Source: Halomicronema hongdechloris C2206
GTDB lineage: Bacteria > Cyanobacteriota > Cyanobacteriia > Phormidesmidales > Phormidesmidaceae
DNA: 32,000 nucleotides
NCBI RefSeq assembly: GCF_002075285.3
Contig: NZ_CP021983.2
Span: forward strand, 4,950,001-4,982,000
Direction: 5' to 3'
The notes beneath the pieces are model-generated. The model saw only the letters and a program-made list of their open reading frames with translations, did no database searches and was not told the origin of the DNA. A program made the position numbers and the translations under genes. Positions 1 to 17,887 of this stretch are shown piece after piece. Numbering within the stretch: position 1 is the first letter of the stretch; every line of letters starts with the position of its first letter.

Positions 1-724
1 GCACTACCCAAATCCCCCAGCCGGCCTGCAAGAAGCCATTGATGCAGTTGATTTGGCGTTTATTCAAAGTGATTTGCCGAAGTTACTGCAATCTATGCAG
101 GTGGGCTCTGATCGCATCAATGAGATTGTCCGCTCCCTGCGAACGTTTTCCCGCCTGGAAGAGGGGGACTTTAAGCCTGCTGACATCCACGACGGGATTG
201 ACAGCACGCTGATGATTTTGAAGCATCGCCTGAAGATGGCCACTGGCAACGGCATCCAGGTGGTCAAACACTACGCTCCCCTAGATCCTATCGATTGCCG
301 CCTGGGGCAACTGAATCAGGTGTTCATGAATATTCTCACCAATGCCATCGACGCCTTGCAGGACCAAGAGGCGGCGCCGTCGAGCCCGTCTCAGCAGCCT
401 CCCACCATTGAGATTCGCACCCGATCCCTGTCTCCCGACTGGATCGCTATTCATATTTTCAACAACGGCCCCAGTATCGACACCGAGATTCACTCCAAGC
501 TGTTCGATCCTTTCTTCACCACGAAATCGGTTGGGCAAGGGACCGGCCTGGGGCTCTCCATTAGCTACCAAATCGTGACTGAGCATCACCGGGGGCGCCT
601 CTATTGCCATTCCAAGGCTAATTGGGGAACCGAATTCATCCTCGAGTTGCCCACCCATCATCCCGACGAGACCATGCCGGACTTGGCGGCAGCAGATCGC
701 TGAGCGGCCTCGACCCAGGGCTGG
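1..724. repeat. Copy A of a ~720-bp near-identical direct duplication (partner 12280..13003)
   Basis: Hand alignment at offset 12279. Coding mismatches occur only at 369 (A vs G, Glu/Gly) and 699 (G vs A, Arg/His). There are 2 more mismatches in the 21 nt after the stop codon, and similarity is lost after ~724/13003. The left limit is unknown because copy A runs off the window. Confidence 0.95.
2..703 (+). CDS. Sensor histidine kinase, C-terminal portion (5' end lies outside the window)
   Basis: The frame of ORF 53..703 stays open back to the window edge. The translation shows N-box NILTNAIDAL, G1 FDPFFTTK and G2 GTGLGLSISYQIV of an HATPase_c domain. Nucleotides 1..703 match 12280..12982 with 2 mismatches. 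Confidence 0.85.
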   Translation, partial: HYPNPPAGLQEAIDAVDLAFIQSDLPKLLQSMQVGSDRINEIVRSLRTFSRLEEGDFKPADIHDGIDSTLMILKHRLKMATGNGIQVVKHYAPLDPIDCRLGQLNQVFMNILTNAIDALQDQEAAPSSPSQQPPTIEIRTRSLSPDWIAIHIFNNGPSIDTEIHSKLFDPFFTTKSVGQGTGLGLSISYQIVTEHHRGRLYCHSKANWGTEFILELPTHHPDETMPDLAAADR

Positions 725-900
725 GATACTGGCTATGGGGCTAGCCGGCTGGTCTGCAACGGCGCCCAGCTTGGTGGCGGCTATAGAAGGCAGAAGGCGA
801 TTGTCTGGGATTGATAAAGTACCGAAAAATTATCGAGTCGCTGTTGGTGAAGGGCTGAGCATTCTGAGACTGACCATATCTTAGTCGTGAGGTATATCCC

Positions 901-1374
901 ATGGTCACGAATAGAGTAAGCGCCACCTTAGACTCCAGCGAGCTACAGACGATGATGGCTGCGATCGCAACCATTCCAGAGAAGCTGTCATTCTTTGCCG
1001 GGCTGACGCCAGAGGAGCGCAAGTCCCTGCTCAAGATGGCCGATACCAATGAAGCCTTTGCCCGCCGCGCCCTGGAAGTGGCCACCCAGACCCCAGATTT
1101 TCTGCCCTGCTCCTTTGACCTGGAAGAGATGCAGCGAGACCTGACCCTGTTTACCTCGCTGCAGCCGGTGATTCTAGCCGTAACCCAACTGCAGGAGATG
1201 CTGACGTATACGGCCACAGCCGCAGGCAACGAGGCCTACACGGCCGCCTTGGAGGTGTATCGCTACGCCAAGGCCAATGGCACCATGGCCGGCCTGGATG
1301 ATCTAGTGGAGAAGCTGGGGGAATGGTTCACCAAGCGGGCCAACCCCAAAGGCAGCCAGCCGGTCACCGAATAA
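901..1374 (+). CDS. Hypothetical protein (helical, Ala/Leu/Glu-rich; no motif I can name)
   Basis: 157-aa ATG-initiated ORF with coding-like composition. The longer antisense ORF 741..1229 is Arg/Ser-rich and looks like a shadow frame. Confidence 0.6.
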   Translation: MVTNRVSATLDSSELQTMMAAIATIPEKLSFFAGLTPEERKSLLKMADTNEAFARRALEVATQTPDFLPCSFDLEEMQRDLTLFTSLQPVILAVTQLQEMLTYTATAAGNEAYTAALEVYRYAKANGTMAGLDDLVEKLGEWFTKRANPKGSQPVTE

Positions 1375-1419
1375 TCCCAGCCCCGGCTGAAGTTACGTTT
1401 CTACAGCGTTATCGATCAC

Positions 1420-1600
1420 AGTTCGGGTCGCACTGCGTTTGCCCGGAATGACAGGACTTATTTTCGCGGTTAGTTTGCTGTCTAAGAAGACCCCATTACC
1501 GTCATTCCCGCGGCGGCGGGAATCCAGAGAACCAACCTCGGCATCGACCCAGAGGGCTCTGCCCGGATTCCAAGCCTACCCGCAATAACCGTACTGCCAG
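1420..1600. repeat. Dispersed hairpin-repeat module (GTCATTCCCGC-loop-GCGGGAATCC type)
   Basis: 1433..1545 equals the reverse complement of 23233..23345 with 4 mismatches in 113 nt. It contains a perfect 8-bp stem, ATTCCCGC (1504..1511) / GCGGGAAT (1516..1523). Weaker similarity to the partner continues on both sides. Confidence 0.9.
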
Positions 1601-1602
1601 TC

Positions 1603-1850
1603 CACCCTTCTGCTGCTCCCGACCACCTTTGTGCTGCTCCCGCTCACCCTGGTGGTGCATCAGAGCACCCTTTTGCTGCTCTCGACCACCCTGATGATGC
1701 TCCCGATCGCCTTCGTGGTGCTCCCGACCACCCTGGTTGGTGCACCCACTCACCTTTTTCGTGTATCCGACCACCCTGGTGGTGCACCCGAGCACCTTTT
1801 TGCTGCTCCTGACCACCTCTTTGGTGCATCCACCCACCTCTGTCGTGGAC
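1603..1850. repeat. 21-nt minisatellite, ~11.8 units, with alternating A/B subtypes (42-nt higher-order period)
   Basis: Unit boundaries read off at 1603, 1624, 1645, 1666, 1687, 1708, 1729, 1751, 1772, 1793, 1814 and 1835. Type A is roughly CACCCTTTTGCTGCTCCCGAC and type B roughly CACCCTGGTGGTGCACCCGAG. The last unit is cut by the IS630 end at 1851. About 5 units occur in reverse complement at 23061..23163. Confidence 0.9.
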
Positions 1851-3143
1851 TAGTACCCGATGACAGAAGTAAGCGAGCTATTTATGCGGTGAGAGGCTTG
1901 CCTGTATAGTTCCACTTGAAGGGCTTGGCCATCGTGCGATTGAAGTAATCAACAAAGTCCAAAATCTTGGCCCTGAGTTCAGCTTGACTCTTAAAACTGG
2001 AGCGTCGGAGCAACTTCCGCACCAAAATACTAAACCAAATTCCAATTTGATTGAGCCAGGAACAATGCTTCGGGGTGAAATGCACCACCAGACGATGTGC
2101 CGCGTTGGTCAAGAACGCGGCACGGGTCGCCATCGATTGCAGAATGCCGGACTTGCCTTTGACGCCTAATGCCAGGGGTTCAGGTTCGAGCTCAGCCGCC
2201 AAACGCACCAGGGACTCGGACTGGTGTGTGTTGAGACAGTCCATGACCAAGTGAATTTTGGGTGCCTCCGGGGACTGCGCGAGCAAGGCTCTCAGATGAG
2301 TGTCTAAATCCTGCTCAGTGCGGGTATCGCCCACCGTTGCCTGGTCGATGCGTCCGGTGGCCACATTCAAGGAGGCAATGAGAGCTTGGGTGCCATGGCG
2401 AATGTATTCAAATTCGACTCGAACACAGCGCCCCGGCTTCATGGCAATATCCGGCATCGTTCGCTCCAGGGCTTGAATCCCAGTCATTTCATCGAGACTA
2501 ACGGTCAACTCACCCTGCTCGGCTGGTGCGGCCGCTTGTTGATAAACCTCACAGATGTCTTCAACTTTGGCTTTGAACGCTGGGTCGGGAGGGGATTTAA
2601 CCAGTAGCGGCTCTGGTGCGGTTTGAGTTCGGCTTCCGCCAAGAGGCGACCCACATGTCGCACACTGATGCTATCGACGATCTGTTGCTGGATTAATTCA
2701 TCGGCCAGTTCTTGGGGCGTCCATTGACTAATCGGACGGCCATATTGCTCCGGTGGCGAACAGGCCAAAGCATACAGTTCGGTGATTTGCTCCAGTGTAA
2801 AGGTGGGTGGCGTCCCGGAGCGATAGGCATCTTGCAACCGCTCGGCGACGGGCACCTCGCGGGAACTGAGTGACAATCAGCGCGTTCGCCAGCACCGACT
2901 CATCGCTTTGCCAATGCCTAAGTCACGGGCAATCGCACCGTGGCTGTCGCCCTGAGCCGCTCGCAGGATGATTTTCGCCCGCAAAGCGATTTACTGAGGG
3001 GTGCTGGGACGCTTCGCGAGCTGCTTTAACTCATGAAGTTCCGACTCGCTCAAGGTGATGGATGGGGCGGGTAGACGGGGCATAACTGGGATGTCCTGAG
3101 AGGGGTTCCTAAAGGATACTCCCATTTCTGCCATTCAGTACTA
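1851..3143 (-). mobile_element. IS630-family insertion sequence, decayed
   Basis: The transposase reading frames are of IS630 type. The imperfect terminal inverted repeats are GTACCCGATGACAGAAGT (left, from 1853) and the reverse complement of TTCTGCCATTCAGTAC (right, ending 3141), about 14/21 matching. Both ends are flanked by TA (1851-1852 and 3142-3143), as expected for the TA target duplication of this family. Confidence 0.8.
1882..3083 (-). pseudogene. IS630-family transposase, disrupted by two in-frame stops and one frameshift
   Basis: From ATG 3083..3081 the HTH-like N-terminus MPRLPAPSITLSESELHELKQLAKRPSTPQ runs into TAA at 2993..2991 and then TGA at 2879..2877. ORF 2876..2505 (..KPHQSRYWLN) needs a frameshift near 2585-2595 to continue as PDPAFKAKVEDICEVYQQAAAPAEQGELTVSLDEMTG, which is ORF 2508..1882. 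The catalytic-core motifs LVMDCLNTHQS and HCSWLNQIGIWFSIL are present. From memory, the G in WLNQIG sits where I would expect a catalytic E. Confidence 0.8.
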
Positions 3144-3438
3144 GCAGCAGATGAACTGTGAGACAGTGTTTTGAACAGAGCTCTTGCACCAGTCCGTTTA
3201 TATCCTGCCTTAGCCTCGTTCGGCTGAGCTCACGTCGACGCCTAAATCCCCTGCAAGATGTGAGTTGAAGTGAGAATGATGACCCGCGAGGTGAGTTGTG
3301 CCGCGCCGGATTGCGATCGCTCAACCGATGAACAATCACTGCGTCCGTTCCGTTCTATTTGCTGGCGTGAGGCAGATCACCACCTTGACTACGAATTCTG
3401 TACTAAGTTTAGATCTTAATTTCATGTGTTCTCGGTAT

Positions 3439-3538
3439 TCCTTTGGCGGGGTATTGGGATGAGGGTATTCCGGACAATTCAGCATACCTCAGTCCTGACT
3501 TCTGTCTAATCAATCAGCTACAGGTAGACTTGTCAACT
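3439..3538. repeat. Conserved ~95-nt non-coding element, copy 1 (partner 11408..11501)
   Basis: Hand alignment gives shared blocks TTGG.(A/G)GGG.ATTGGGAT, ATACCT(C/T)AGTCCTG, CTGTC, TCAAT.AGCTACAG and TTGTCAACT in the same order and orientation. I estimate roughly 75-80% identity. Confidence 0.7.
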
Positions 3539-3656
3539 ACGTGAAAATCACTCACAGCAAGCCCTCCAGGGAGAAGAATTAGCACAAGATCGCTAACCCC
3601 TTGTGAAACTATTTAAGATTCCCTTTACCAATCAGTTCTCAGCAAGGCTACCTAAC

Positions 3657-6600
3657 ATGTTAGACACCCTACTGTTGATTCCCCACGGGCACTGCTATCT
3701 TTGGAAACCCAATCTAGTCGGATTACATGTGGTTTCAGATGCGCTGATTGGCATCGCCTACTACTCCATTCCCTTGACCTTGCTCTATTTTGTTCAGAAG
3801 CGCAAGGATGTTCCGTTTGACTGGATTTTCTTACTGTTTTCCGCGTTTATTGCGTTTTGCGGCACCACCCACTTAATGTCCATTTGGACACTGTGGCATC
3901 CGGCTTATTGGGTCTCGGGCACCATCAAAGCACTCACGGCAGCGATTTCGGTCTACACCGCGATTCAACTCATTCCGATTGTCCCCAAAGCGCTCGATTT
4001 GCCCAGTCCAGCCCAGCTAGAAGCGATCAACCATCAGCTTCAGCAGCACGTTGCTAAGCGTGAGCAGGCAGAACGACATCTGCGCCAGTTGTCTGCTCGC
4101 CTGAATCTGGCAGTGAAGTCTGCGGCTATCGGCATTTGGGATTGGGACATGACCCAAGACATCCTCACCTGGGATAAACGGATGTATGAGCTCTATGGCC
4201 TCATCCCCGAGTGTTTTACCCCTGCCTATGGAGCATGGTCGAGCTGTTTGCATCCCGACGATCGCAGGGCAGCAGAAATGGCTGCTCAGCAAGCCCTGCA
4301 AGGCGAGAAAGACTTTGACCAAGACTTTCGAGTGGTTCATCCCGATGGCAGCATCCACTACATCAAAGCCAATGCGCTGGTGCAGCGCGATCCCCACGGT
4401 GACCCTCAACGGATGATCGGGGTTAGCTATGACATTACTGATCGCAAGCAGGCTGAGCAACAACTCCAGCAACTCAATCAAGCGCTAGAAGCCAAAGTCG
4501 AAGAGCGCACCCGAGAACTGCAAGCCCTGGCCAGACGGGAGCAATTGAGTGCCAACATCGCCACTCAGATCCGATCATCGCTAGATTTACAGGTGATTCT
4601 GGAGACGGCGGTGCGGGAGATTCGATCGCTGCTACAGTGCGCTCGCGTGAATATCTGGCGATTTGACGCCGATGGGCAAACCATGGTCGTGGCCGAGTCC
4701 ACCGACTCCTCCCTGTCGCTGGTGGGGGAACGGGTCAACGACACCTGCCTGCAAGACTACACCGCACTTTATCGCCAGGGGCGGGTGCGCATCGTGCCGG
4801 ATATCTACACTACCGACATGTCAGCCTGTCACCGGGAGCTACTGATCCGCTCCCAGATACGCGCCAAAATCTTGGTGCCGCTGCTGTGTGGGGATGAGTT
4901 GTGGGGCTTGCTCCATGTCAGCGAGAGCCAACACCCCCGCGACTGGCAACCGGAAGAAGTGGAGCTGCTGCAGGCGTTATCGGTGCAACTGGGGATCGCC
5001 CTTCAACAGGCCACCATCCATCAGCAATTACAGGCGGAACTGAACGAGCGACAGCAAACGGAAGCTCGCCTGCGAGCCAGTGAACAACGTTATATCACCC
5101 TGGCAGCAGCGGTTCCCGTGGGGATTTATCGCACCGACGCGGCGGGTAACTGCCTCTACGTCAACGATCGCTTGGGTCAGATCACGGGGCTCGCCCCAGA
5201 AGCGACAATGGGACAGGGATGGCGGCAAGGACTGCACCCGGATGATCGGGACCGGGTCGTGACTGAATGGTATCAATCTGCCCAGGAAAATCGTCCCTTC
5301 CAGCTCGAATATCGGTTTCAACACCCTGACGGGACGGTGAGGTGGGTCTATGGACAATCCGTCGCCGAGTGGGATGCCGATGGGCAAGTGATTGGCTATG
5401 TCGGCACCATCACGGATATCAGCGAGAGAAAGCGGCTGGAAGCCGAACGCAAACAGGTCGAAGCCGAGCGCCTGCAAGCTAAGCAGACTCGTAAAGAGTT
5501 AACGTTACTGGAGCAGATTCTGGACATCATTCTCGCGGGCTATTGGGATTGGGATATTCCCGGCAATCAAGAATACCTTAGCCTTGGCTTCAAACAAATG
5601 TTTGGCTACGCCGATCACGAACTGCCCAACACCCCTGAAACCTGGCAAAATCTAATCTTTCCACAAGATTTACCCGGGGTATTGGAGTGTTTCAACCGCC
5701 ATGTCCAGAGCCGAGGGGAAGTGCCCTACGTCAACGAAGTCCGCTATCGCCATAAAGATGGATCGACGGTCTGGGTGATCTGCTCCAGTAAGGTGATTGA
5801 GTGGGATGAGGCGGGTAACCCGCTGCGGATGATTGGCTGTCACATTGATATTAGCGATCGCAAACGGGCAGAAGCCGCCCTGATTAGCAGTGAAGCCCGA
5901 CTACAATACCTGGTCTCCTCCAGCCCCGTCGTCATTTTTAGCTGCAAACCCAATGGCGACTATGGGGCCACCTTTATCAGCGAAAACGTCGAAGCGTTAT
6001 TGGGCTGGAATGCTCAGGATTTTCTGGCAGACTCTGAATTTTGGCTCAACCATCTCCATCCCGACGATGCTGAGCGGGTTCTGGCCGGGCTGGCAAATTT
6101 ATTCACCGGTGACTTTTATGCGCACGAGTACCGCCTCCGTAAAGGCGATGATACCTACTGTTGGTGCCTGGCCCAGTTACGGTTGATTCGCGATCAGGCC
6201 GGTAACCCCCTCGAGATGCTGGGATATTTGATTGATATTAGCGATCGCAAACACACCGAAGCAGCCCTGCGGGACAGCGAAGCCCGACTGCAACTGATTA
6301 CCGACTCTATTCCGGGCTGCATTTCCTACACGGATGCCTCCCAGCACTATCGGTTTGTCAACCACACCTATGAAGAGTGGTTTGGCTGTCGGAAGGAAGA
6401 TATCCTGGAGCGCAGCATTGCCGAGGTGCTTGGCGCTGAAGCGTACCAGCGTGCCCGACAGCATATTGAGCGTGTGCTGTCTGGCGAAACCGTGACCTAT
6501 GAAAACGAGTTGCCCTATCAGGGGAGACAACCCCGCTATGTCTCTGGGAAATTGGTGCCAGAGATTGACTCACAGGGCCGGGTTCACGGCTACTATGCGC

Positions 6601-8477
6601 TGATTACCGACATTAGCGATCTCAAACAGGCCGAAGCCGCACTCAAGGCCAGCCGGGCTTACTATCAGGGCATCGTCTCTGACCAGACAGAACTGATCTG
6701 CCGCTTCTTGCCCGACGGCATCCTCACCTTTGTCAACGATGCCTACTGCCAGTTTTTCCAGAAGTCGCCGGAAGACCTCTTGGGCCGTAGCTTTACCCCC
6801 CTCATACCTGCCGAGGACAAAGAGATTGCCTTACAAACCTTCAACAGCCTGTCCGTAGACAACCCGGTCGTCACCTGTGAACATCGCGTGATTGCGCCGG
6901 ATGGCTCCATCCGCTGGCAACAGTGGACCGATCGCGCCCTAGTTGACCCAGACGGCAACTTCATTGAATTCCAGGCAGTCGGTCGAGACATTACTGCCCT
7001 GAAAGAAGCAGAAGCCGACATCAAGCGCCATCTCACCGCGATTGAGGCTGCCATCGACGGCATCAGCATTTTGCGAGATGGCCATTATAGTTATCTGAAC
7101 CAGTCCCAGTTAACCCTATTCGGTTATTCCCAAGCCGAGGATCTGTTGGGCCAATCCTGGCAGGTGCTCTACCCCGCTCAGGAAGTTCGCCGGTTCCAAA
7201 AAGAGGTGCTGCCCCAGGTGAAGCAACACGGGTTCTGGCACGGTGAAGCCACAGGGAAACGACGGGACAACACCCTTTTCCCCGTGGAGGTATCGCTGAC
7301 CCTGACCCCTACCGGCGATATCATCCGAGTTTGTCGGGATATCAGCGATCGCAAGCAGGCAGAAGATCATCTCCGCCAGATGTCTGTTCGTTTGAATCTG
7401 GCGGTGAAGTCTGCGGCCATGGGCATCTGGGATTGGGATGTTACCCACAACATCCTCACCTGGGATCAACAAATGTATGAACTCTATGGCATTACCCCCG
7501 AGCAGTTTACCAATGTCTATGAAGCCTGGTCTAGTAGTGTCCATCCCGACGATCTCGCGGCGGCAGAAACGGCGGTTCAGCAAGCCCTGCGCGGTGAAAA
7601 AGACTTTGACCAAGACTTTCGAGTGATTCATCCCGATGGCACCATCCGCTTCATCAAAGCTAATGCCCTGGTGCAGCGCAATCGCCACGGTGACCCTGAA
7701 TGGATGATCGGGATTAACTATGACATTACCGCTCGCAAACGCACTGAAGCCCAAATCCAAGAGTATGCCACCCAACTAGAGTCCTCTAACCGAGAATTGG
7801 AAGCCTTTGCCTACTCGGTTTCCCATGACCTGCGGGCTCCTCTGCGGGCGATCGATGGCTTTAGCAAAGCCTTACTCGAAGATTACGGAGACACTTTCGA
7901 TGAAGAGGGCCAAGATTACTTCGATCGGATTCGCAAAAATGTCACCCGCATGGGCATGTTAATCGATGATTTGCTGAGCTTATCGCGGGTCTCTCGCTAC
8001 GAAATCCGGCATACCACGGTCAACCTCAGTACCCTGGCTCAAGAGCTGATGGCTGAATTGCAAGCATCGGAGCCAGAGCGGCCCGTCGAGGTTGGGATTG
8101 CCCCCGACGCGATCGTCTCCGCCGATGCCACCCTGATGCGGGTGGTCCTGACGAACCTGTTGCAAAATGCCTGGAAATTTACCAGCCACCATCCCACAGC
8201 CCGAATTGAATTTGGCATGATTTACCCAGACGGACAGCCGGTCTATTTTGTCCGAGACGATGGCGCTGGCTTTGATATGGCCTACTCCAACATGCTGTTT
8301 GGCGTCTTCCAACGATTGCATAATATCCATGAATTTCCCGGCACAGGAATTGGGTTAGCGACGGTTCAAAGAGCGATTCATCGCCATGGGGGACGCGTTT
8401 GGGCAGAGGCAACCGTCGAGCAGGGCGCAACCTTTTATTTCACCCTTCCCAGTACACCGCTCGAGCTAGGAGCATAG
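3657..8477 (+). CDS. Multi-sensor histidine kinase: ethylene-binding-domain-like 3-TM N-terminus, PAS, bilin-type (CBCR-like) GAF, seven further PAS/PAC, HisKA, HATPase_c
   Basis: The ORF is open from GTG 3603; I prefer ATG 3657 (MLDTLLLIPHGHCYLW). The N-terminus aligns by eye to Arabidopsis ETR1 helices 1-3: VVSDALIGIAYYSIPLTLLYFV, WIFLLFSAFIAFCGTTHLMSIWT and TIKALTAAISVYTA. The GAF has ..NDTCLQDY.. and ..DIYTTDMSACHRELL..ILVPLL..LWGLL. Repeated PAS/PAC ends read DI(S/T)(D/E)RK. The H-box is FAYSVSHDLRAPLRAI, and the N/G boxes are LLQNAWKF, DDGAGFD and GTGIGLATV. Confidence 0.93.
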   Translation: MLDTLLLIPHGHCYLWKPNLVGLHVVSDALIGIAYYSIPLTLLYFVQKRKDVPFDWIFLLFSAFIAFCGTTHLMSIWTLWHPAYWVSGTIKALTAAISVYTAIQLIPIVPKALDLPSPAQLEAINHQLQQHVAKREQAERHLRQLSARLNLAVKSAAIGIWDWDMTQDILTWDKRMYELYGLIPECFTPAYGAWSSCLHPDDRRAAEMAAQQALQGEKDFDQDFRVVHPDGSIHYIKANALVQRDPHGDPQRMIGVSYDITDRKQAEQQLQQLNQALEAKVEERTRELQALARREQLSANIATQIRSSLDLQVILETAVREIRSLLQCARVNIWRFDADGQTMVVAESTDSSLSLVGERVNDTCLQDYTALYRQGRVRIVPDIYTTDMSACHRELLIRSQIRAKILVPLLCGDELWGLLHVSESQHPRDWQPEEVELLQALSVQLGIALQQATIHQQLQAELNERQQTEARLRASEQRYITLAAAVPVGIYRTDAAGNCLYVNDRLGQITGLAPEATMGQGWRQGLHPDDRDRVVTEWYQSAQENRPFQLEYRFQHPDGTVRWVYGQSVAEWDADGQVIGYVGTITDISERKRLEAERKQVEAERLQAKQTRKELTLLEQILDIILAGYWDWDIPGNQEYLSLGFKQMFGYADHELPNTPETWQNLIFPQDLPGVLECFNRHVQSRGEVPYVNEVRYRHKDGSTVWVICSSKVIEWDEAGNPLRMIGCHIDISDRKRAEAALISSEARLQYLVSSSPVVIFSCKPNGDYGATFISENVEALLGWNAQDFLADSEFWLNHLHPDDAERVLAGLANLFTGDFYAHEYRLRKGDDTYCWCLAQLRLIRDQAGNPLEMLGYLIDISDRKHTEAALRDSEARLQLITDSIPGCISYTDASQHYRFVNHTYEEWFGCRKEDILERSIAEVLGAEAYQRARQHIERVLSGETVTYENELPYQGRQPRYVSGKLVPEIDSQGRVHGYYALITDISDLKQAEAALKASRAYYQGIVSDQTELICRFLPDGILTFVNDAYCQFFQKSPEDLLGRSFTPLIPAEDKEIALQTFNSLSVDNPVVTCEHRVIAPDGSIRWQQWTDRALVDPDGNFIEFQAVGRDITALKEAEADIKRHLTAIEAAIDGISILRDGHYSYLNQSQLTLFGYSQAEDLLGQSWQVLYPAQEVRRFQKEVLPQVKQHGFWHGEATGKRRDNTLFPVEVSLTLTPTGDIIRVCRDISDRKQAEDHLRQMSVRLNLAVKSAAMGIWDWDVTHNILTWDQQMYELYGITPEQFTNVYEAWSSSVHPDDLAAAETAVQQALRGEKDFDQDFRVIHPDGTIRFIKANALVQRNRHGDPEWMIGINYDITARKRTEAQIQEYATQLESSNRELEAFAYSVSHDLRAPLRAIDGFSKALLEDYGDTFDEEGQDYFDRIRKNVTRMGMLIDDLLSLSRVSRYEIRHTTVNLSTLAQELMAELQASEPERPVEVGIAPDAIVSADATLMRVVLTNLLQNAWKFTSHHPTARIEFGMIYPDGQPVYFVRDDGAGFDMAYSNMLFGVFQRLHNIHEFPGTGIGLATVQRAIHRHGGRVWAEATVEQGATFYFTLPSTPLELGA

Positions 8478-8480
8478 GCG

Positions 8481-8903
8481 ATGGCAACCCCTCGTCCCAT
8501 CTTGTTGGTTGAAGATAACCCCGACGATGAACGACTGACCCTGCGGGCACTACGACAGGGTAAGGTGACAAACCCCATTCAGGTTGCTAGGAATGGTGAA
8601 GAGGCATTGACAGTGCTATTTTCGGCTGATCCGCTACCCACTGTCGTGTTGCTGGACTTAAAGCTCCCCAAAATTGATGGATTGGAGGTTTTGCGACGCA
8701 TCCGAGGCCATGACCGCACTCGACTGCTGCCGGTGGTTGTGCTCACCTCCTCCAGCGAAGAGCGGGACATTGTTGAAAGCTATAGCCTGGGGGCCAATAG
8801 TTATGTGCGGAAGCCGGTTGATTTTGATCAATTCACCAACGCCATCTCTCAACTCGGGTTGTATTGGGTGCTGATTAATGAGCCATTACCGGAAAGCTTG
8901 TAA
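8481..8903 (+). CDS. Single-domain CheY-like response regulator (Rcp1-like)
   Basis: ILLVEDNPDDERLTL.., VVLLDLKLPKIDGLEVL, VVVLTSSSEE and YVRKPVDFDQF are REC-domain hallmarks. The start lies 3 nt after the kinase stop. Confidence 0.92.
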   Translation: MATPRPILLVEDNPDDERLTLRALRQGKVTNPIQVARNGEEALTVLFSADPLPTVVLLDLKLPKIDGLEVLRRIRGHDRTRLLPVVVLTSSSEERDIVESYSLGANSYVRKPVDFDQFTNAISQLGLYWVLINEPLPESL

Positions 8904-8905
8904 TC

Positions 8906-10996
8906 ATGAGTGACTCACTCCGTGTTCTGATCGTGGAAGATGCAGAGGACGATGCGCTGCTAGTGTTGCGAGAATTACGTCGTGGTAATTTCGATCTGGT
9001 TTGGGAACGGGTGCAAACAGCTGAGTCGCTCCGCACCCTGCTGACGACCCGGGCCTGGGACGTGATCATTTCAGATTACCGCTTACCCGGATTTGACGCC
9101 CCTGCGGCCCTGGAAATTGTCAAACAAAGCCAACTCGACATTCCCTTCATTATGGTTTCGGGCACCATTGGTGAGCGCTCGGCGGTGGAAATCATGAAGG
9201 CCGGTGCCCACGATTACCTGATGAAGGACAACTTAGTCCGATTACCCGAGGCGGTGCGGCGCGAATTGCGGGATGCTCAAATTCGGGCAGAGCGCAAACA
9301 AGCTGAAGTTGCCCTGAGACGGCAACTGGCGGCGATCGAGGCGGCGATCGATGGCATCGGTATTCTGCAAGGAGACACGTATCTCTATCTCAACCAAGCC
9401 TATCTCAACCTCTTTGGCTACGACCACGCTGAAGAGCTGGTGGGCAAAACCTGGAGACTGTGTTATTCCCAAGTGGAGATAGACCGGTTTGAGCAGGAAG
9501 TCTTTCCAGTGCTGGATCGCGATCGCGCCTGGCAGGGAGAAGCGATCGCCACTCGCAAAGATGGCTCTACCTTTGCCCAGGGCGTGTCCCTCACCCTCAC
9601 CGAGGATGGATTATTGATTTCTGTCTGTCGTGATATTAGCGACCTCAAACAGGCCCAGGAGATGCTGATCTATATCGCGTTGCACGATCCCCTGACCGGG
9701 TTACCGAACCGAAAACTATTGATAGAGCGACTTGAATTGGCCATTAACCGAGCCAGGCGTCTTGAGAACTACCATTATGCGGTCTTATTTCTGGATCTAG
9801 ATCGATTCAAAGTGATCAATGATAGTTTGGGGCACTCGGTTGGCGACCAGCTCCTGATCGCCATTGCCCAACGACTAAAAGTGCATGTAAGAGACATTGA
9901 CTTAGTGGCTCGACTGGGGGGTGACGAGTTTGTGATTCTGCTAGAGGAGATCAGTGGTCCTGAAGACGTGATTCAAATTTCCGAACGTATCCTGGCAGAT
10001 TTTCAAACGCCGTTCATCATCCATGACTATGAAATCTTTACCAGTTTCAGTATTGGTATTGTTCTGGGAACCCAGGATTACCATCAGACTTCCGATTTAA
10101 TGCGCGATGCCGACATTGCCATGTATCGAGCTAAGGCACAACAGAACAACTCGTATAAGTTTTTCGATGCAGCGATGCATACTCAAGCGCTGAACCGCCT
10201 CACCCTCGAAACGGATCTGCGCAAAGCGCTCAACCAACAAGAATTTGTGGTTTACTATCAACCCATTTTTGATTTGTTCAATCATCGACTGTTTGGATTT
10301 GAGGCTTTAGTTCGCTGGCAACACCCGACGCGTGGGTTCATTTCTCCAGATGAATTTATTTCTATTGCCGAAGAGACGGGGTTCATTGTACCCCTGGATA
10401 ATTGGGTGCTTTATAACGCTTGCCAGCAAATAGCCAGTTGGGAAAACCAATTTGCCAATGGGTCCTCCTTCAAAATCAGTATCAACCTTTCTGCACAAGA
10501 TCTTCGCAAGGTGAATTTGATTCAGGATGTTGATGACATATTGGCTGATACTGGATTAGCGGGTCACTCGCTCACCTTAGAGATTACCGAGAGTCTGTTG
10601 ATTGAGAACATCGATCAGACCATTGATTTATTAGTTCAGTTGGCGTCGAGAAACATTCAGATCAGCATTGATGACTTTGGCACAGGGTATTCCTCCCTGG
10701 GTTATCTACACCGTTTTCCAGTGAATAACCTGAAAATCGATCGCTCTTTTGTGGATCAAATTCAATCAGAAAGTCGCGAATATCATGTCGTCGATACGAT
10801 TATTGCCCTCGGTCAGCACCTCGGTCTATCGGTGATTGCAGAAGGCGTTGAAACAACTCAACAGCTTGAATGGCTACAACAACTCCGTTGCGAGTTTGGG
10901 CAAGGCTATCTATTTTCTAAACCCCTAGCAGCAGCTGAAATTGAAAGACGTTATCTCGCCAGACTAGAGGAAACGTATAACTCAAATGAGGGATAA
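8906..10996 (+). CDS. Response regulator with REC-PAS-GGDEF-EAL architecture (c-di-GMP synthesis/hydrolysis)
   Basis: REC: VLIVEDAEDD, DVIISDYRLPG, DYLMK. The PAS domain spans aa 141-251. GGDEF: RLGGDEFVILL, with RDID five residues upstream (an RxxD I-site). EAL: FEALVRW, EITES, DDFGTGYSSL, KIDRSF, EGVET, QGYLFSKP. The start lies 2 nt after the upstream stop. Confidence 0.93.
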   Translation: MSDSLRVLIVEDAEDDALLVLRELRRGNFDLVWERVQTAESLRTLLTTRAWDVIISDYRLPGFDAPAALEIVKQSQLDIPFIMVSGTIGERSAVEIMKAGAHDYLMKDNLVRLPEAVRRELRDAQIRAERKQAEVALRRQLAAIEAAIDGIGILQGDTYLYLNQAYLNLFGYDHAEELVGKTWRLCYSQVEIDRFEQEVFPVLDRDRAWQGEAIATRKDGSTFAQGVSLTLTEDGLLISVCRDISDLKQAQEMLIYIALHDPLTGLPNRKLLIERLELAINRARRLENYHYAVLFLDLDRFKVINDSLGHSVGDQLLIAIAQRLKVHVRDIDLVARLGGDEFVILLEEISGPEDVIQISERILADFQTPFIIHDYEIFTSFSIGIVLGTQDYHQTSDLMRDADIAMYRAKAQQNNSYKFFDAAMHTQALNRLTLETDLRKALNQQEFVVYYQPIFDLFNHRLFGFEALVRWQHPTRGFISPDEFISIAEETGFIVPLDNWVLYNACQQIASWENQFANGSSFKISINLSAQDLRKVNLIQDVDDILADTGLAGHSLTLEITESLLIENIDQTIDLLVQLASRNIQISIDDFGTGYSSLGYLHRFPVNNLKIDRSFVDQIQSESREYHVVDTIIALGQHLGLSVIAEGVETTQQLEWLQQLRCEFGQGYLFSKPLAAAEIERRYLARLEETYNSNEG

Positions 10997-11062
10997 GAGG
11001 GGCGTATCCACGAGGTAGGGGAGTACAAATGTCACCCGGCATTATCCAGTCCGCTCCTCGAT

Positions 11063-11222
11063 GTCATTCCCGTACTCGCTTAGCGTGGCCGGAGGCCGTA
11101 AAACGGGAATCCACTGACCGATAGGTTGCCGCTCTGGATTCCCGCCGGCGCGGGAATGACTCCTCACTTCTCACTTCTCCCTCCTCCCTTCTCCCCTGGA
11201 CTCCCGCCGGCGCGGGAATGAC
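11063..11222. repeat. Cluster of three hairpin-repeat units of the GTCATTCCCG..CGGGAAT family plus a pyrimidine-rich tract
   Basis: Stems are ATTCCCGT (11066..11073) / ACGGGAAT (11103..11110), ATTCCCGC (11138..11145) / GCGGGAAT (11150..11157), and a third unit GGACTCCCGCCGGCGCGGGAATGAC (11198..11222). TCCTCACTTCTCACTTCTCCCTCCTCCC lies between the second and third units. Confidence 0.85.
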
Positions 11223-11407
11223 ACCGGGATCATTTTTGTTCGCGAGCCCCTTAATTCTCACACCTGTCATGTCGTCTGTCTTTCAGACAAGCTGTGCCCT
11301 AGCATCAGCCATGCCCCTTGGGCTATACGCGTCAGCGGCTCCAGAGGAACAACGAAGCGGATGAGCAACGCCACACCCAGGCTTTGCAATCTACTGATTT
11401 TCGATAT

Positions 11408-11501
11408 TACCTTGGTAGGGATTGGGATAGTCCAGGCGGTCAAGAATACCTTAGTCCTGGCTGCTGTCCAGTCAATGAGCTACAGAGGGGATTTGTCAAC
11501 T
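11408..11501. repeat. Conserved ~95-nt non-coding element, copy 2 (partner 3439..3538)
   Basis: See copy 1: same block order and orientation. Confidence 0.7.
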
Positions 11502-11513
11502 GGTTGGAAGTAG

Positions 11514-11650
11514 GTAGGGTGGGCAAAATCAGGATAGATAACCCTCGCTGGTGCCTGTAAGCTTTGTTTGCCCACCAATTTTTTCAGCGGTGGGCATTGT
11601 AGCTTGAGTGCGGGTTAGCAAAGATTTCGGACAAGAAATGCCCACCCTAC
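11514..11650. repeat. MITE-like structured element: two tandem long hairpins with GGTGGGCA(A/T)(A/T) stems, bounded by a 12-bp inverted repeat
   Basis: GTAGGGTGGGCA (11514..11525) is the reverse complement of TGCCCACCCTAC (11639..11650). Hairpin 1 pairs GGTGGGCAAA (11518..11527) with TTTGCCCACC (11567..11576). Hairpin 2 pairs GGTGGGCATT (11589..11598) with AATGCCCACC (11637..11646). Confidence 0.7.
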
Positions 11651-11887
11651 GAACTGCTCATCAACAGTGAGCCAACGGTCTTTATCTGGCAATCTCAACA
11701 GCTCGTCGCCGGCCGCGCCATCATTGCTGGGGAGCAGAGACTAGGCGCAGTCAGTATTGGCCTCTCAACCGCTCCGCTACAGCAGAAAGTTGCTAGGGTC
11801 CGCAACCAAGGCATCGTCATCGCGCTGATTGCAGGGGGGTTAGGGGCGAGTATTGCCGTAGTACTCAGCCGCTCGATCACAACCCCA

Positions 11888-12982
11888 TTGCAGGCTCTCG
11901 TGGTGGCCACCCGCAAGATTGCCCAAGGGGATCTAAATCAGCAGGTGCCGATTCAGAGCCATGATGAGCTGGCCGTCTTGGCCCAGTCCTTTAACGAGAT
12001 GACCAGCCGCTTGCAGCAAACCCTATCCCTACTCCAAGCCCACAAAGACGAGTTAGAGCAGCGGGTACAGGAACGCACCCAAGCGCTGTCCGAGGCCATT
12101 CAGCACCTGCAGCAGACGCAGACCCAATTGGTTCAAAGCGAGAAAATGTCTAGTCTGGGCCAATTAGTCGCTGGTGTCGCCCACGAAATCAACAATCCAG
12201 CTAGTTTCATCCACGGCAATCTCACCTACGCCTCTACCTACATCCAAGATCTGCTGGATATTATCACCCTTTACCAACAGCACTACCCAAATCCCCCAGC
12301 CGGCCTGCAAGAAGCCATTGATGCAGTTGATTTGGCGTTTATTCAAAGTGATTTGCCGAAGTTACTGCAATCTATGCAGGTGGGCTCTGATCGCATCAAT
12401 GAGATTGTCCGCTCCCTGCGAACGTTTTCCCGCCTGGAAGAGGGGGACTTTAAGCCTGCTGACATCCACGACGGGATTGACAGCACGCTGATGATTTTGA
12501 AGCATCGCCTGAAGATGGCCACTGGCAACGGCATCCAGGTGGTCAAACACTACGCTCCCCTAGATCCTATCGATTGCCGCCTGGGGCAACTGAATCAGGT
12601 GTTCATGAATATTCTCACCAATGCCATCGACGCCTTGCAGGACCAAGGGGCGGCGCCGTCGAGCCCGTCTCAGCAGCCTCCCACCATTGAGATTCGCACC
12701 CGATCCCTGTCTCCCGACTGGATCGCTATTCATATTTTCAACAACGGCCCCAGTATCGACACCGAGATTCACTCCAAGCTGTTCGATCCTTTCTTCACCA
12801 CGAAATCGGTTGGGCAAGGGACCGGCCTGGGGCTCTCCATTAGCTACCAAATCGTGACTGAGCATCACCGGGGGCGCCTCTATTGCCATTCCAAGGCTAA
12901 TTGGGGAACCGAATTCATCCTCGAGTTGCCCACCCATCATCCCGACGAGACCATGCCGGACTTGGCGGCAGCAGATCACTGA
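11888..12982 (+). CDS. Histidine kinase (HAMP remnant-HisKA-HATPase_c) lacking its N-terminal sensor/TM1 region; possibly a pseudogene
   Basis: H-box LVAGVAHEINNPASF; the N/G boxes are as in copy A. The frame is open from 11603 and encodes a sensor-domain end plus TM2 (..GAVSIGLSTAPLQQKVARVRNQGIVIALIAGGLGASIAVVLSRSITTPLQ). There is no ATG/GTG/TTG before TTG 11888, which lies inside the HAMP region. Confidence 0.65.
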   Translation: MQALVVATRKIAQGDLNQQVPIQSHDELAVLAQSFNEMTSRLQQTLSLLQAHKDELEQRVQERTQALSEAIQHLQQTQTQLVQSEKMSSLGQLVAGVAHEINNPASFIHGNLTYASTYIQDLLDIITLYQQHYPNPPAGLQEAIDAVDLAFIQSDLPKLLQSMQVGSDRINEIVRSLRTFSRLEEGDFKPADIHDGIDSTLMILKHRLKMATGNGIQVVKHYAPLDPIDCRLGQLNQVFMNILTNAIDALQDQGAAPSSPSQQPPTIEIRTRSLSPDWIAIHIFNNGPSIDTEIHSKLFDPFFTTKSVGQGTGLGLSISYQIVTEHHRGRLYCHSKANWGTEFILELPTHHPDETMPDLAAADH

Positions 12983-13003
12983 GCGGCCGCGACTCAGGGC
13001 TGG
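12280..13003. repeat. Copy B of the ~720-bp near-identical duplication (partner 1..724)
   Basis: See copy A. Confidence 0.95.
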
Positions 13004-13088
13004 ATGGAAGCCTTTACGACAAGCTCACGATGAGCAGTTCATCTAGAATAGAGCCTTGCCATAATCGTCCCAGCAGTCTCCCAGGCAC

Positions 13089-15422
13089 CTAGGAATGCAG
13101 CCGCTGCACATGATAGGTGGGAAAGGTGCCGTAATGCTTGGCCCAAGGCATCCGTCCCACATAACTGCAGGTAAACGATTGCTGGCCCTCGGAGGTGGCG
13201 ATGGCGGCAAAGGCCTGGCTGGCATAGACTTTGCCCGGCGGTGTGATCGGCTCGATGCGGGCGGCATGGTTAACATGGGTACCCATGTAGTTGACCTGAT
13301 TGGTAATGGGGTCAACATTGCGCAACACCGGCCCGGCATGGAGAGCGATGCGAATGGTGAGATCGGCAGGTAACCCTTGTTGCTGCCAGTCGATGGACTG
13401 CATCAGATCGCCGAGATCGAGGGCGAAGAGGCCGGCCTCCTGCACCGTGGGAAACACATAGTAGAGGGCATCTCCCCAGGTATTCTTGGTCAGGGGCTGA
13501 TACCGGGGCTGATTGGATAAGGCCGCTACCGCCTCCAGAAAATGCCGCATGAAGATGCACAGCTGGTCTTCCAGCAGTTGGGTGTACTGCACCACATCGG
13601 CAAACAGCAGGGCGCGAATCTCCCGCTGCTGTTGTTCTAGAGCCGCCGTAGGCGTGGACCTCGGCTCAGACTCGGTGTCATACCCTGCTGCCGCCAGTAA
13701 AGCAGCACTGTCAATGATCTCCACCTGGTGGCTCCACTGCTGCCAGTAGGCCACCGTGCTGGCGGTGCCGCCGGGACCATCGCCGGGCTGACCATTCCAG
13801 ACGGCCAAGGGCACTAAATCGGTGTAGAGTTGCTCGGCCCGGATTTTAGCCAGCCCATGCAACAAGCGGTTGGAATACTCGTAGGAGACATCGTCTGCCT
13901 GGGGTTTGCAGTCGGAGGCGACCACCACCTCTCGGGCTTGGGATAAGACCCGGTCGAAGCGGGCCACCCAATCCCCTGCCGTCGCCGTGCTTACCGAGTC
14001 TTGAATGAACTGGTCCCGGTTATAGGGCAGCACGATATTGCACTCTCCCCCCAGCTCCAGCAGGGCTTCCAGGAACAAAATATCGCTGCCACAGGCGGCC
14101 GAGGCATAGCCCACCCGCCCGTTCAGCTGTTGCAGTCGGGTATGAATGGCGTCGTACACGGAGTCCTCCAGCACTGGCGGCAACCGTGGCTGGGGTCGAT
14201 TGGCGGCATCCATGCGATGGCCACAGAAGACGATCACCCGGGGCATCTGAAACCACTCTCGCAGGGGGTCTAGGCCCTGGCCCAGGTGCTGCATCAACAG
14301 GGCCGCATTGCGATAGCTGGAACCCAGATCGCCGAATCGTCCCTGGCCCACCTGAACCGCCTGAGTGTAGTAGGCAGCGGCTTGGTCATAGCGGCCCAGT
14401 ACTAATTCGGCCTCCCCTAGGGTGGCTAAGATCCAGTAGGTGTCCTGGCCGGTCTTGGTGGCTTGCTCTAGGGCCTGTCGAGCGGTTTCGGCCACGGCGG
14501 TGGCCAGCTGGCGGGCCTGGCCGCGGTTCCCTTGGAGTAGGCTCAGGGTGGCAGCGTTGATGCCGGGCCAGAGGCTACCACTGCGGCGATAGGCTTCTAG
14601 ATAGCGGTCTGCGGCCAGCTTTAAGTGATGCGATCGCATCTGGTCAGGCCCTGCCTGGCGCCAGAGGTCCTTGTGGGTGCGGGCCAGCAAGCTTAGGGTT
14701 TCATCGTCATCCTGCCCTGCCGCCATCAGTTGACCCAACACCTCATTAGCGGCATGGGTGGCGCCGCTGCGGGCCAGGGCCAGGGCCAATAACTGCTGCA
14801 ACCGCAAATGCTGAGGCCACTGCTTCAGACCATCCGCCAGCACATCATAGGCCATTAGGGTTTCCCCCAACTGCAGCATCATTTCCCCCAAAGAGCAGTG
14901 TAGATCGGGGGTGCGGGGCCGCAGGGTGACAATTTCCCGTCGCAGCGCCAGCAGTGGGGCCAACTGCCGCGGCATGGCCCCAGCCCCGATACGCAGAGTC
15001 GCCGTGGCAGCCTCAGCGGTCCCCAACTTGATGCGAGGGGGCGCCACCGGTTGCGCCTCAATCCGATAGCCCAGGGCCACGGCCGTCTTGAGATTGTCGA
15101 GGTAGACCTGTAATTGCTGTTCTTGAACGGCTTCCGGTAGCTGCTCGAAAGGACAGAGATAGGGATGAGTGCGCTCGGCGGCATTGAGCCGAGTGCCATA
15201 GCGCCAACCTAGCCCGAGTAATGCTTGGGCCCAATGGTCATGACTGTTTTCAGCCAACCGCTCTGCCAGATATAAGTACTCCGCCGTCAGCGTTGCCTGA
15301 GACGTATCGATGGGCTGTGGTTGGTACACGGGTTGTTCTTGTCCCCTGCAGCGTTTACCCGAGCGTTGAGGGTCTCCCTCGCTTTTCCTCCATTGTGGGG
15401 TGACAACGGCAGAAGCATCCAC
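13089..15422 (-). CDS. Multidomain signalling protein: RyR domain, TPR / TRAF-binding-like helical repeat region, SLOG-like Rossmann domain, class III adenylate/guanylate cyclase domain
   Basis: RyR-like: AENSHDHWAQALLGLGWRYGTRLNAAERTHPYLCPFEQLPEAVQEQ..ALGYRI. Helical repeat: ETLSLLARTHKDLW..YLEAYRRSGSLWPGINAATL. SLOG-like: VIVFCGHRMD..GYASAACGSDILFLEALLELGGECNIVLPY..LAVWNGQPGDGPGGTA. Cyclase: LLFADVVQYTQL, TWGDALYYVF, IRIALHAGPV, GTHVNHAARIE. Confidence 0.88.
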   Translation of the reverse strand: MDASAVVTPQWRKSEGDPQRSGKRCRGQEQPVYQPQPIDTSQATLTAEYLYLAERLAENSHDHWAQALLGLGWRYGTRLNAAERTHPYLCPFEQLPEAVQEQQLQVYLDNLKTAVALGYRIEAQPVAPPRIKLGTAEAATATLRIGAGAMPRQLAPLLALRREIVTLRPRTPDLHCSLGEMMLQLGETLMAYDVLADGLKQWPQHLRLQQLLALALARSGATHAANEVLGQLMAAGQDDDETLSLLARTHKDLWRQAGPDQMRSHHLKLAADRYLEAYRRSGSLWPGINAATLSLLQGNRGQARQLATAVAETARQALEQATKTGQDTYWILATLGEAELVLGRYDQAAAYYTQAVQVGQGRFGDLGSSYRNAALLMQHLGQGLDPLREWFQMPRVIVFCGHRMDAANRPQPRLPPVLEDSVYDAIHTRLQQLNGRVGYASAACGSDILFLEALLELGGECNIVLPYNRDQFIQDSVSTATAGDWVARFDRVLSQAREVVVASDCKPQADDVSYEYSNRLLHGLAKIRAEQLYTDLVPLAVWNGQPGDGPGGTASTVAYWQQWSHQVEIIDSAALLAAAGYDTESEPRSTPTAALEQQQREIRALLFADVVQYTQLLEDQLCIFMRHFLEAVAALSNQPRYQPLTKNTWGDALYYVFPTVQEAGLFALDLGDLMQSIDWQQQGLPADLTIRIALHAGPVLRNVDPITNQVNYMGTHVNHAARIEPITPPGKVYASQAFAAIATSEGQQSFTCSYVGRMPWAKHYGTFPTYHVQRLHS

Positions 15423-15623
15423 CTAAATTTCCCCGGGTATCTTCCCCAGGCTGCCACGCTGGGAGCAATTGTCAGGACCGCCAGGACAGCTATTCCCCAC
15501 CAGGAAAATTTATGTCGAAAAGGTTTGCAAATCCTGGCCTGGGAATCCGGAGAACGATCTAAGCTAAGGAGCAGCGCCTAGGGCCATAGTCTGTGTGGGC
15601 GCGTTGAATAGGGAGATGCGGAG

Positions 15624-16799: not shown

Positions 16800-16802
16800 G
16801 GG

Positions 16803-17411: not shown

Positions 17412-17563
17412 CGATAGCAGTGACCAGATAGCTGCATGATCTGCTTAGAGCCTCAGCCATCCGGCACCCAACCGCTCCAGGCTGACTGGCGGTTGCGATC
17501 GCTGACTCAACTATAGTAGGCCAGATAATTGCATGCAGGGGTATCCTCGTAGAATTCGGCAGC

Positions 17564-17790
17564 AGGGAGGGAGTGAAGGGTGAAGGGTGGATGGGTGATG
17601 GGGAGGGCGGAGGAAAGTGATGAGTTTTGAGTTTTGAGTTTTGAATCCCCGCCTTGCTCCTGTGGAGCCGCCTTGCGAACACCACAAGCGGTTCGCCCTG
17701 GTCGTCGGAGTCCGAGGGGAACATAGGGGGAAGGAAGAAGGCAAAGGGCAAAAGGCAGAAGGCTTCAATTCAAAATTCAAAATTTATTGC
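17564..17790. repeat. Composite intergenic repeat: purine-rich tract, GAGTTTT x3, module X, AG-rich tract, TTCAAAA repeats
   Basis: 17680..17722 matches the reverse complement of 23502..23544 at 40/43 positions. GAGTGAAGGGTGAAGGGTGGATGGGTGATGGGGAGG mirrors the pyrimidine-rich tract at 23811..23885. Confidence 0.8.
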
Positions 17791-17887
17791 TACCTTGCCG
17801 AGGCGACGCGAGCCGCCGCCGCCAACCCACAAGCTCTTCCGTGCATGGATCTACAATAGCCAAGAGTCCTTCCTTACCGAAAGATGC

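Follow-up and report, generated by a model that had tools for sequence, protein, structure and literature searches.

Cyanobacterial ethylene-binding domains (EBDs) have been known since 1999 and are thought to be ancestral to those of the plant ethylene receptors; to our knowledge, only a handful of them have been studied. Here we describe a member of this family in a 32,000-nucleotide (nt) stretch of DNA from Halomicronema hongdechloris C2206 (contig NZ_CP021983.2, positions 4,950,001 to 4,982,000), which we call the window and in whose coordinates all positions are given. The element in question (3657-3995, forward strand) forms residues 1-113 of a 1606-amino-acid (aa) histidine kinase whose open reading frame (ORF) ends at 8477. 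Judged by its sequence, the domain is a true relative of the ethylene-binding domain of plant ETR1 with all tested key residues intact, and we consider it probable that the kinase senses ethylene in a Cu(I)-dependent manner and acts on a two-component and cyclic di-GMP (c-di-GMP) pathway. The EBD family, its presence in cyanobacteria and its pairing with cyanobacteriochromes have all been published already. An earlier, sequence-only reading of this DNA had picked out the ETR1-like N-terminus and overlooked that the domain is long known and abundant in cyanobacteria.

The roles of individual EBD residues have been worked out in ETR1, where Cys65 and His69 chelate the Cu(I) ion that binds ethylene (PMC10266040, PMC11971883). 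Asp25 either hydrogen-bonds to His69, thereby polarizing it, or acts as a third ligand, and it forms a polar bridge to Lys91 in helix 3 that carries the signal outward; its replacement by asparagine, a natural variant in some cyanobacteria, lowers the affinity for ethylene about 100-fold (PMC10266040, PMC11971883). Residues without which ethylene is not bound include Ile35, Pro36 and Ile62 (PMC6586836), and a set of seven residues required in ETR1 is the yardstick by which functional receptors are predicted in bacteria (PMC6682694, PMC11819568). Two isolated bacterial EBDs, SynEtr1[1-130] and AzoEtr1[1-130], display saturable binding of 14C-ethylene, and Geitlerinema cells both bind ethylene and respond to it (PMC6682694, PMC11819568).

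SynEtr1 of Synechocystis sp. PCC 6803 (slr1212; also named UirS, PixA and Hik44) takes both light and ethylene as inputs in one protein. Its EBD alone binds ethylene, and its outputs affect phototaxis and biofilm formation. The window protein resembles it in domain layout, combining a three-helix EBD, PAS domains, a two-cysteine GAF domain of the DXCF lineage and a kinase. It differs in having roughly double the length and six to seven extra PAS domains, and its second-cysteine motif reads DTCL. The neighborhoods differ as well: the regulators that go with slr1212 are slr1213 and slr1214, whereas the window kinase adjoins genes for a lone receiver (REC) domain and for a REC-PAS-GGDEF-EAL protein. 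Orthology with slr1212 is unlikely because the window protein is a mosaic without a full-length ortholog.

In Geitlerinema sp. PCC 7105, an organism that binds ethylene and whose phototaxis ethylene alters, the putative binder GeiEtr2 has an EBD 60% identical to ours, the same order of EBD, PAS, phytochrome-like GAF and kinase, and an adjoining diguanylate-cyclase gene. It differs in its length (1025 aa), its fused receiver and, according to a machine-read text, in having DTYL at the DXCF position and Cys-Tyr rather than Cys-His at the canonical site. AzoEtr1 of Azospirillum brasilense, likewise an EBD kinase from a bacterium, has the seven binding residues and is encoded next to a response-regulator gene; the protein both binds ethylene and governs biofilm formation (PMC11819568). 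In contrast to the window protein, this proteobacterial kinase is 525 aa long and lacks a photosensory GAF.

The EBD of Arabidopsis ETR1, an ethylene receptor of plant subfamily 1, is 42% identical to that of the window protein. ETR1 shares with the window protein the tested binding residues and the Asp25-Lys91 pair, and it too carries a GAF domain and a functional-looking histidine kinase downstream of the EBD. ETR1 has two N-terminal cysteines, whereas the window protein has one, and the loop between helices 2 and 3 is three residues shorter in the window protein by alignment. In contrast to plant receptors of the ETR1/ERS1 type, the window protein has a cyanobacteriochrome-type bilin GAF and an array of seven to eight PAS domains and lacks a fused receiver, and it is predicted to signal by bacterial phosphotransfer rather than through CTR1/EIN2. 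The plant-receptor architecture, EBD-GAF-kinase(-receiver) with two N-terminal cysteines, is thus not that of the window protein.

Family membership and conserved residues of the ethylene-binding domain

The sequence-only reading had based its comparison with ETR1 on three strings, VVSDALIGIAYYSIPLTLLYFV, FSAFIAFCGTTHLMSIWT and TIKALTA, all of which are found in the translation of 3657-8477(+). The resemblance that it saw by eye lies far above chance. Pfam ETR1_N (PF25487, ‘Ethylene receptor 1-like, N-terminal domain’; cut-off 27 bits) matches residues 20-115 (3714-4001) over profile positions 2-97 of 97 with 150.1 bits and E=2.2e-44, and BLASTP aligns the domain to the N-terminus of Arabidopsis ETR1 with 42% identity over 101 residues (E=2e-25). 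The profile search that it had proposed therefore places the domain in the ETR1-like ethylene-binding family and not in an unrelated transmembrane family. No NCBIfam model matched the EBD part of the kinase. We also considered placing the EBD in another transmembrane fold family, for which neither sequence nor fold searches of solved structures gave support.

We aligned the window domain with ETR1 and 185 homologs (120 cyanobacterial and 65 mostly from plants) using MAFFT. The residues that had been named as important, namely the Cys and His copper ligands, the helix-1 Asp, Tyr and Ile-Pro and the helix-3 Lys, are all present, and the equivalents of ETR1 Ile62 and Thr68, which had not been named, are likewise conserved. 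In helix 1, ETR1 D25, Y32, I35 and P36 correspond to D28, Y35, I38 and P39 of the window protein; in helix 2, I62, C65, T68 and H69 correspond to I65, C68, T71 and H72; and in helix 3, K91, A102 and P110 keep the same numbers. The cyanobacterial homologs are nearly uniform at these positions. Asp is found in 118 of the 120 (the other two have Asn), Tyr and the helix-1 Ile in all, Pro in 117, the Ile62 equivalent in all, Cys and His in 119 each, and the Lys91 equivalent in 105. At the Asp25 position, the window protein has the Asp of the high-affinity form and not the low-affinity Asn, and the alignment shows both partners of the Asp25-Lys91 polar pair, D28 and K91. Conservation extends to the sites of the classic insensitive alleles of ETR1, which we take to be A31, I62, C65 and A102.

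N-terminal to helix 1, the single cysteine Cys13 aligns with ETR1 Cys6, one of the two N-terminal cysteines that form the dimer disulfides in ETR1. It is conserved in 118 of the 120 cyanobacterial homologs, and one N-terminal cysteine is usual in cyanobacterial receptors (PMC6682694). Cys13 lies in the motif PHGHCYLW (3678-3707), which is near-invariant in cyanobacterial EBDs and appears as PHGYCFLW in one gammaproteobacterial EBD. Plant receptors lack the motif and have CxC in its place. The His and Cys of PHGHCYLW could form a further metal site or the dimer disulfide.

Three hydrophobic helices are evident from two kinds of analysis. Kyte-Doolittle hydropathy peaks are centered at residues 29-38, 59-68 and 99-104, with nothing past residue 130, and AlphaFold2 predicts helices at residues 18-48, 55-80 and 84-113, with confidence scores (pLDDT) of 84-95 within the helices (helix 1 about 90) and a mean of 85.

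The domain is widespread. A scan of one genome per GTDB species returned at least 594 loci with an EBD relative; its search pattern demands alanine at the position of Gly32 and so missed the source genome itself. The best 80 of these loci are all cyanobacterial and 64-77% identical to the window domain. Multiple copies occur in several genomes; Tolypothrix PCC 7101, for instance, has two. We typed the architectures at the best 80 loci crudely, by phmmer with the window protein’s own domains. The commonest is an EBD-PAS-HK-REC protein (HK, histidine kinase) of about 717 aa (25 of 80); others are EBD-HK, EBD-HK-REC, EBD-PAS-GGDEF-EAL and giant PAS arrays. This variety indicates that the EBD is a widely used and freely recombined input module. 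The common 717-aa proteins of Nostocales were considered as possible orthologs of the window kinase and set aside, as beyond the EBD they share with it only generic PAS and kinase similarity.

The same breadth bears on what the domain senses. Cu(I) may be bound as in ETR1 while the physiological signal is something other than ethylene: another small unsaturated or π-acid ligand (other alkenes, CO or isocyanides), or the state of the membrane with respect to copper or redox. The outputs at the 594 or more loci vary widely and many genomes have several copies, which leaves room for diverged specificities; ethylene data come from three bacterial or cyanobacterial systems only, and the PHGHC stretch, near-invariant in bacteria and absent from plants, supplies extra potential metal ligands. 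However, the window domain retains all tested ethylene-binding residues of ETR1, beyond the metal ligands alone, and every bacterial EBD tested so far binds ethylene (PMC6682694, PMC11819568). We rate a different physiological signal as unlikely.

Putative light input and mosaic make-up of the kinase

The kinase frame is open throughout its 4.8 kb, and every catalytic and ligand motif is intact. The mechanical ORF begins at a GTG at 3603, 18 codons upstream of the ATG at 3657, which is also the start in the database gene call (P0186, 1606 aa). The N-termini of homologs lie 7-13 residues ahead of the PHGHCYLW motif, so the ATG fits as the start. The domains follow in the order EBD, coiled-coil linker, PAS, cyanobacteriochrome-type GAF, six to seven PAS, HisKA (Pfam, E=1.2e-13) and HATPase_c (Pfam, E=1.1e-17). 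The H-box HDLRAP, found at residue 1390, and the ATP-lid motifs are intact, and residues 1500-1590 show recognizable N, G1, F and G2 motifs.

Pfam places the GAF domain at residues 310-450. Its best relatives among solved structures are all cyanobacteriochromes: the top match is the dual-sensor kinase 6OAP (E=1.5e-38), followed by NpR6012g4, the NpR3784-derived miRFP670nano, AnPixJg2, TePixJ, Slr1393g3 and RcaE. The canonical bilin-attachment pair Cys391-His392 is kept (‘SACH’, with Cys at 4827-4829), and by alignment Cys364 (4746-4748), in Asp362-Thr-Cys364-Leu, occupies the ‘second Cys’ position of the DXCF type. The window GAF thus reads V-N-D-T-C-L where red/green domains have W-x-D-x-x-L and DXCF-type domains have D-x-C-F (motif definitions from PMC11284453). 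The most similar GAF domains in the database, at up to 73% identity, carry DTCF or DTCL together with CH, and the nearest of them have DTCF and CH. By sequence, then, the domain belongs to the two-cysteine cyanobacteriochromes of the DXCF lineage, with bilin binding as the predicted consequence. On this assignment, the protein would take in light as well as an ethylene-type signal, in the manner of SynEtr1/UirS. A non-chromophore GAF like that of ETR1 was rejected, given that the best solved relatives are all cyanobacteriochromes and both cysteines are present. The likely light input at 4542-5051 had gone unmentioned in the sequence-only reading.

The front of the kinase has affinities to two kinds of protein. 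Over residues 1-275 (EBD and PAS1), identity to P0189 is 73%; this EBD-PAS...HK protein of an uncultured cyanobacterium (ENA contig) has the same C-terminal organization and, in contrast to the window protein, no GAF. Residues 277-604 (GAF and PAS2) are instead 65-69% identical to CBS-PAS-GAF-PAS kinases (such as P0187, P0190 and P0288), which differ in having a soluble N-terminus of CBS domains and no EBD. This mosaic span corresponds to window 3657-5470. Farther along, PAS1 and the last PAS (~7350-7780) are 67% identical as protein, an internal duplication that is also visible in the DNA (4063-4362 and 7354-7653, 83% identity).

These relationships bear on whether the EBD senses anything at all. 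The three helices may serve only for membrane anchoring and dimerization, all sensing being left to the PAS and cyanobacteriochrome domains in the cytoplasm. Some nine domains of the cytoplasmic part are potential sensors, and close relatives of this part carry a soluble CBS N-terminus, which implies that the body does not need an EBD. Against this stand the match to a ligand-binding family at E=2e-44 and the helix-buried D, C, H and K, which are conserved from plants to cyanobacteria; since an anchor would not need such invariant polar and metal-binding residues, a mere anchor is quite improbable. Homology to SynEtr1 and AzoEtr1, together with the residue conservation, thus argues for the view of the sequence-only reading that this is a sensor rather than a generic anchor.

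Operon layout, predicted output and proposed mechanism

The gene for the receiver-only regulator begins 4 nt past the kinase stop, and that for the REC-PAS-GGDEF-EAL protein begins 3 nt past the regulator. The GGDEF, EAL, DDFG and EGVE motifs of the latter are intact. The kinase thus heads an operon-like array with both genes, judging by their spacing. Scans for promoters and terminators gave sites no more numerous than in shuffled sequence. PAS7 of the kinase (6999-7376) is 51% identical to the PAS of the REC-PAS-GGDEF-EAL protein (9299-9679), a likeness suggesting that the two proteins share a ligand or touch through their PAS domains. The most economical reading of this layout is phosphotransfer from the kinase to one or both receivers, coupled to control of c-di-GMP.

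These elements can be combined into a mechanism. Residues 1-113 would constitute a three-helix, copper-loaded EBD of the ETR1/SynEtr1 family, through which a multi-sensor histidine kinase receives input at the membrane. The protein would form a homodimer, possibly linked through Cys13, and in each subunit Cys68 and His72 of helix 2 would hold Cu(I), with His72 oriented by Asp28 of helix 1. Ethylene would partition into the membrane and bind the copper. The resulting change would pass through the Asp28-Lys91 polar bridge to helix 3, the predicted output helix, and on to the coiled-coil linker (residues ~114-150). From there, the signal would travel through the PAS/GAF array to the dimerization/phosphotransfer and catalytic (DHp/CA) domains and alter autophosphorylation of His1390. 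Given a GAF of the DXCF lineage, the kinase probably integrates ethylene with short-wavelength light, as SynEtr1 does. The phosphate would be handed to the co-transcribed receiver-only regulator, the REC-PAS-GGDEF-EAL protein, or both. The likely output is turnover of c-di-GMP, through which surface behaviors such as motility or biofilm formation may be affected.

Several points weigh against reading the protein as an ethylene sensor. The case for it rests on homology, and the physiological ligand has been tested in only a minority of bacterial EBDs. The kinase has no full-length relative among 5.8 billion proteins (the best shows 52% identity over 54% of the query), so that its function is not transferable from an ortholog, and at ≥90% identity no relative was found of the kinase, the regulator or the GGDEF-EAL protein. 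A solved relative of the EBD was found neither by sequence (best E=0.82, irrelevant) nor by fold (none at E<1), and the AlphaFold2 model is a copper-free monomer built on an alignment of 32 sequences. Gly32 (3750-3752) replaces the alanine of most homologs and of ETR1 (Ala29), a substitution shared by P0189. The ETR1 reference used in our comparisons was checked indirectly, by its retrieval of plant proteins labelled ‘ethylene receptor’ at 85-90% identity, and it was Wang and colleagues who, in 2006, reportedly found Tyr32 to be a required residue.

A further proposal concerns the kind of output. The domain may be mainly ion-conducting, with ethylene as a modulator, by analogy with the Ca2+ permeation described for plant ETR1/ERS1: in a preprint from 2025, ETR1 of plants and charophytes is described as permeable to Ca2+, and tests of SynEtr1 are proposed. 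That claim comes from a preprint and concerns plant and charophyte proteins only, whereas fusion of the window EBD to a complete kinase with cognate regulators points to two-component output, and we regard ion conduction as a very improbable main role.

As one more well-preserved cyanobacterial EBD, the domain leaves existing knowledge unchanged in its core. The locus offers a modest test case in which an Asp-type, high-affinity EBD, a two-cysteine cyanobacteriochrome and a c-di-GMP enzyme are united in one operon, and thereby a compact system for asking how gas and light signals are integrated.

Genomic setting of the receptor operon

The positions of the kinase, its domains and the surrounding features are collected in Table 1.

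Table 1. Features of the kinase and its surroundings, in window coordinates.
Feature	Position	Strand	Basis
Whole gene: 1606-aa membrane sensor histidine kinase	3657..8477	+	ORF, Pfam domains, same as gene call P0186
N-terminal EBD homolog, residues 1-113	3657..3995	+	Pfam ETR1_N, alignment, BLASTP
Cys13 in PHGHCYLW motif, ETR1 Cys6 position	3693..3695	+	Alignment
Helix 1, residues 18-48, with Asp28 (3738-3740), Tyr35, Ile38, Pro39	3708..3800	+	AlphaFold, hydropathy, alignment
Helix 2, residues 55-80, with Ile65, Cys68 (3858-3860), Thr71, His72 (3870-3872)	3819..3896	+	AlphaFold, hydropathy, alignment
Helix 3, residues 84-113, with Lys91 (3927-3929), Ala102, Pro110	3906..3995	+	Alignment, AlphaFold
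PAS1	4104..4481	+	Pfam
Cyanobacteriochrome-type GAF, residues 296-465	4542..5051	+	Solved-structure relatives, motif
PAS array, PAS2 to PAS8	5064..7781	+	Pfam PAS_3 x7, PAS_9 x6, PAS x5; NCBIfam sensory_box x8
HisKA (His1390, 7824-7826, H-box HDLRAP) and HATPase_c	7800..8456	+	Pfam
Receiver-only response regulator, 140 aa	8481..8903	+	Pfam Response_reg 1.4e-21
REC-PAS-GGDEF-EAL protein, 696 aa	8906..10996	+	Pfam, motifs
IS630-like transposase, two ORFs (HTH_32, DDE_3)	1882..2876	-	ORFs, Pfam
Left direct-repeat copy, 3' end of HAMP histidine-kinase gene	1..724	+	99.4% identical to 12280-13003
Right copy of HAMP histidine-kinase gene, 5'-truncated	11680..13003	+	Repeat and domain comparison

The receptor operon lies in a block bracketed by two direct repeats (1-724 and 12280-13003), 99.4% identical and 12,279 nt apart. 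Both copies are the 3' part of a gene for a HAMP-HisKA-HATPase kinase: the left copy runs off the window, and in the right copy, truncated at its 5' end, the homology begins at ~11680. A related metagenomic contig, L081, which is 82-97% identical in nucleotide sequence across window 13070-27439, has only one complete copy of this kinase gene (576 aa), and the 21-kb stretch of L081 that we compared contains no counterpart of window 715-11679. In that block of about 11 kb, the receptor operon is accompanied by unassigned ORFs, tandem repeats with a 21-nt period, a transposase of the IS630-like kind and a stretch poor in ORFs. Clustering at 90% leaves the regulator and the GGDEF-EAL protein as singletons, in contrast to several flanking genes, for which close relatives are known elsewhere. 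The singletons and the missing counterpart in L081 point to a strain-specific, recently rearranged location for the operon, and the block 715-11679 looks like a strain-specific insertion or rearrangement. Its base composition (GC 0.50-0.56, compared with 0.54-0.64 nearby) is not clearly foreign.

The mosaic protein and its setting allow a bolder proposal, which we put forward tentatively and would call possible rather than probable. The kinase may be an independent, recent re-assembly of SynEtr1’s pairing of ethylene with light, in which a P0189-like EBD-PAS was joined to a DXCF cyanobacteriochrome-PAS-kinase body that elsewhere is headed by CBS domains, with a dedicated REC-PAS-GGDEF-EAL enzyme as its output and the whole carried on a ~11-kb strain-specific block that also holds an insertion sequence. 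If this were true, the EBD would be a mobile, plug-in gas input that cyanobacteria recombine with photoreceptors to gate c-di-GMP, and the locus an example caught in the act. Apart from this proposal, the mosaic make-up and the strain-specific setting with its insertion sequence illustrate how freely the EBD input module is shuffled.

Read more skeptically, the two-lineage mosaic with its internal PAS duplication, the place of the kinase in a strain-specific ~11-kb block beside a transposase and a truncated kinase gene, its lack of an ortholog and the singleton status of its two partners might mark it as a recent, non-functional chimeric by-product of rearrangement in a mobile block, a view made highly improbable by the uninterrupted 4.8-kb frame with all catalytic and ligand motifs intact and by the tight, operon-like spacing to two intact partner genes.

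The surrounding DNA has further features. Between the GGDEF-EAL gene and the truncated kinase copy, both strands are free of ORFs longer than 80 codons over about 890 nt (10997-11887), where the GC content reaches its minimum (0.50). A tandem array with a 21-nt period (1590-1847) is made up of a 110-nt unit repeated in six overlapping copies that are 62-71% identical, and it lies inside a minus-strand ORF of 111 aa, for which Pfam gave no match. Compared with L081 4209-13323, window 13070-22323 is inverted relative to its flanks, a segment of ~9 kb that extends from a gene encoding an RyR-TPR-cyclase protein to one for a PemK toxin. A 147-nt inverted repeat (1429-1575 and 23203-23349; 89% complementary, arms 21.6 kb apart) has one arm in the strain-specific block and the other near the right breakpoint of the inverted segment. 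The RyR-TPR-cyclase gene (13089-15422, minus strand) encodes a 777-aa protein of unusual signaling architecture, in which an RyR domain and a TPR-S sensor are joined to a MAP3K_TRAF_bd-like region and an adenylate/guanylate cyclase domain. Farther downstream, a cluster comprises two genes for putative endonucleases of the Uma2 family and one for a PemK/MazF-type toxin (20035-20832, 20985-21650 and 21970-22317).

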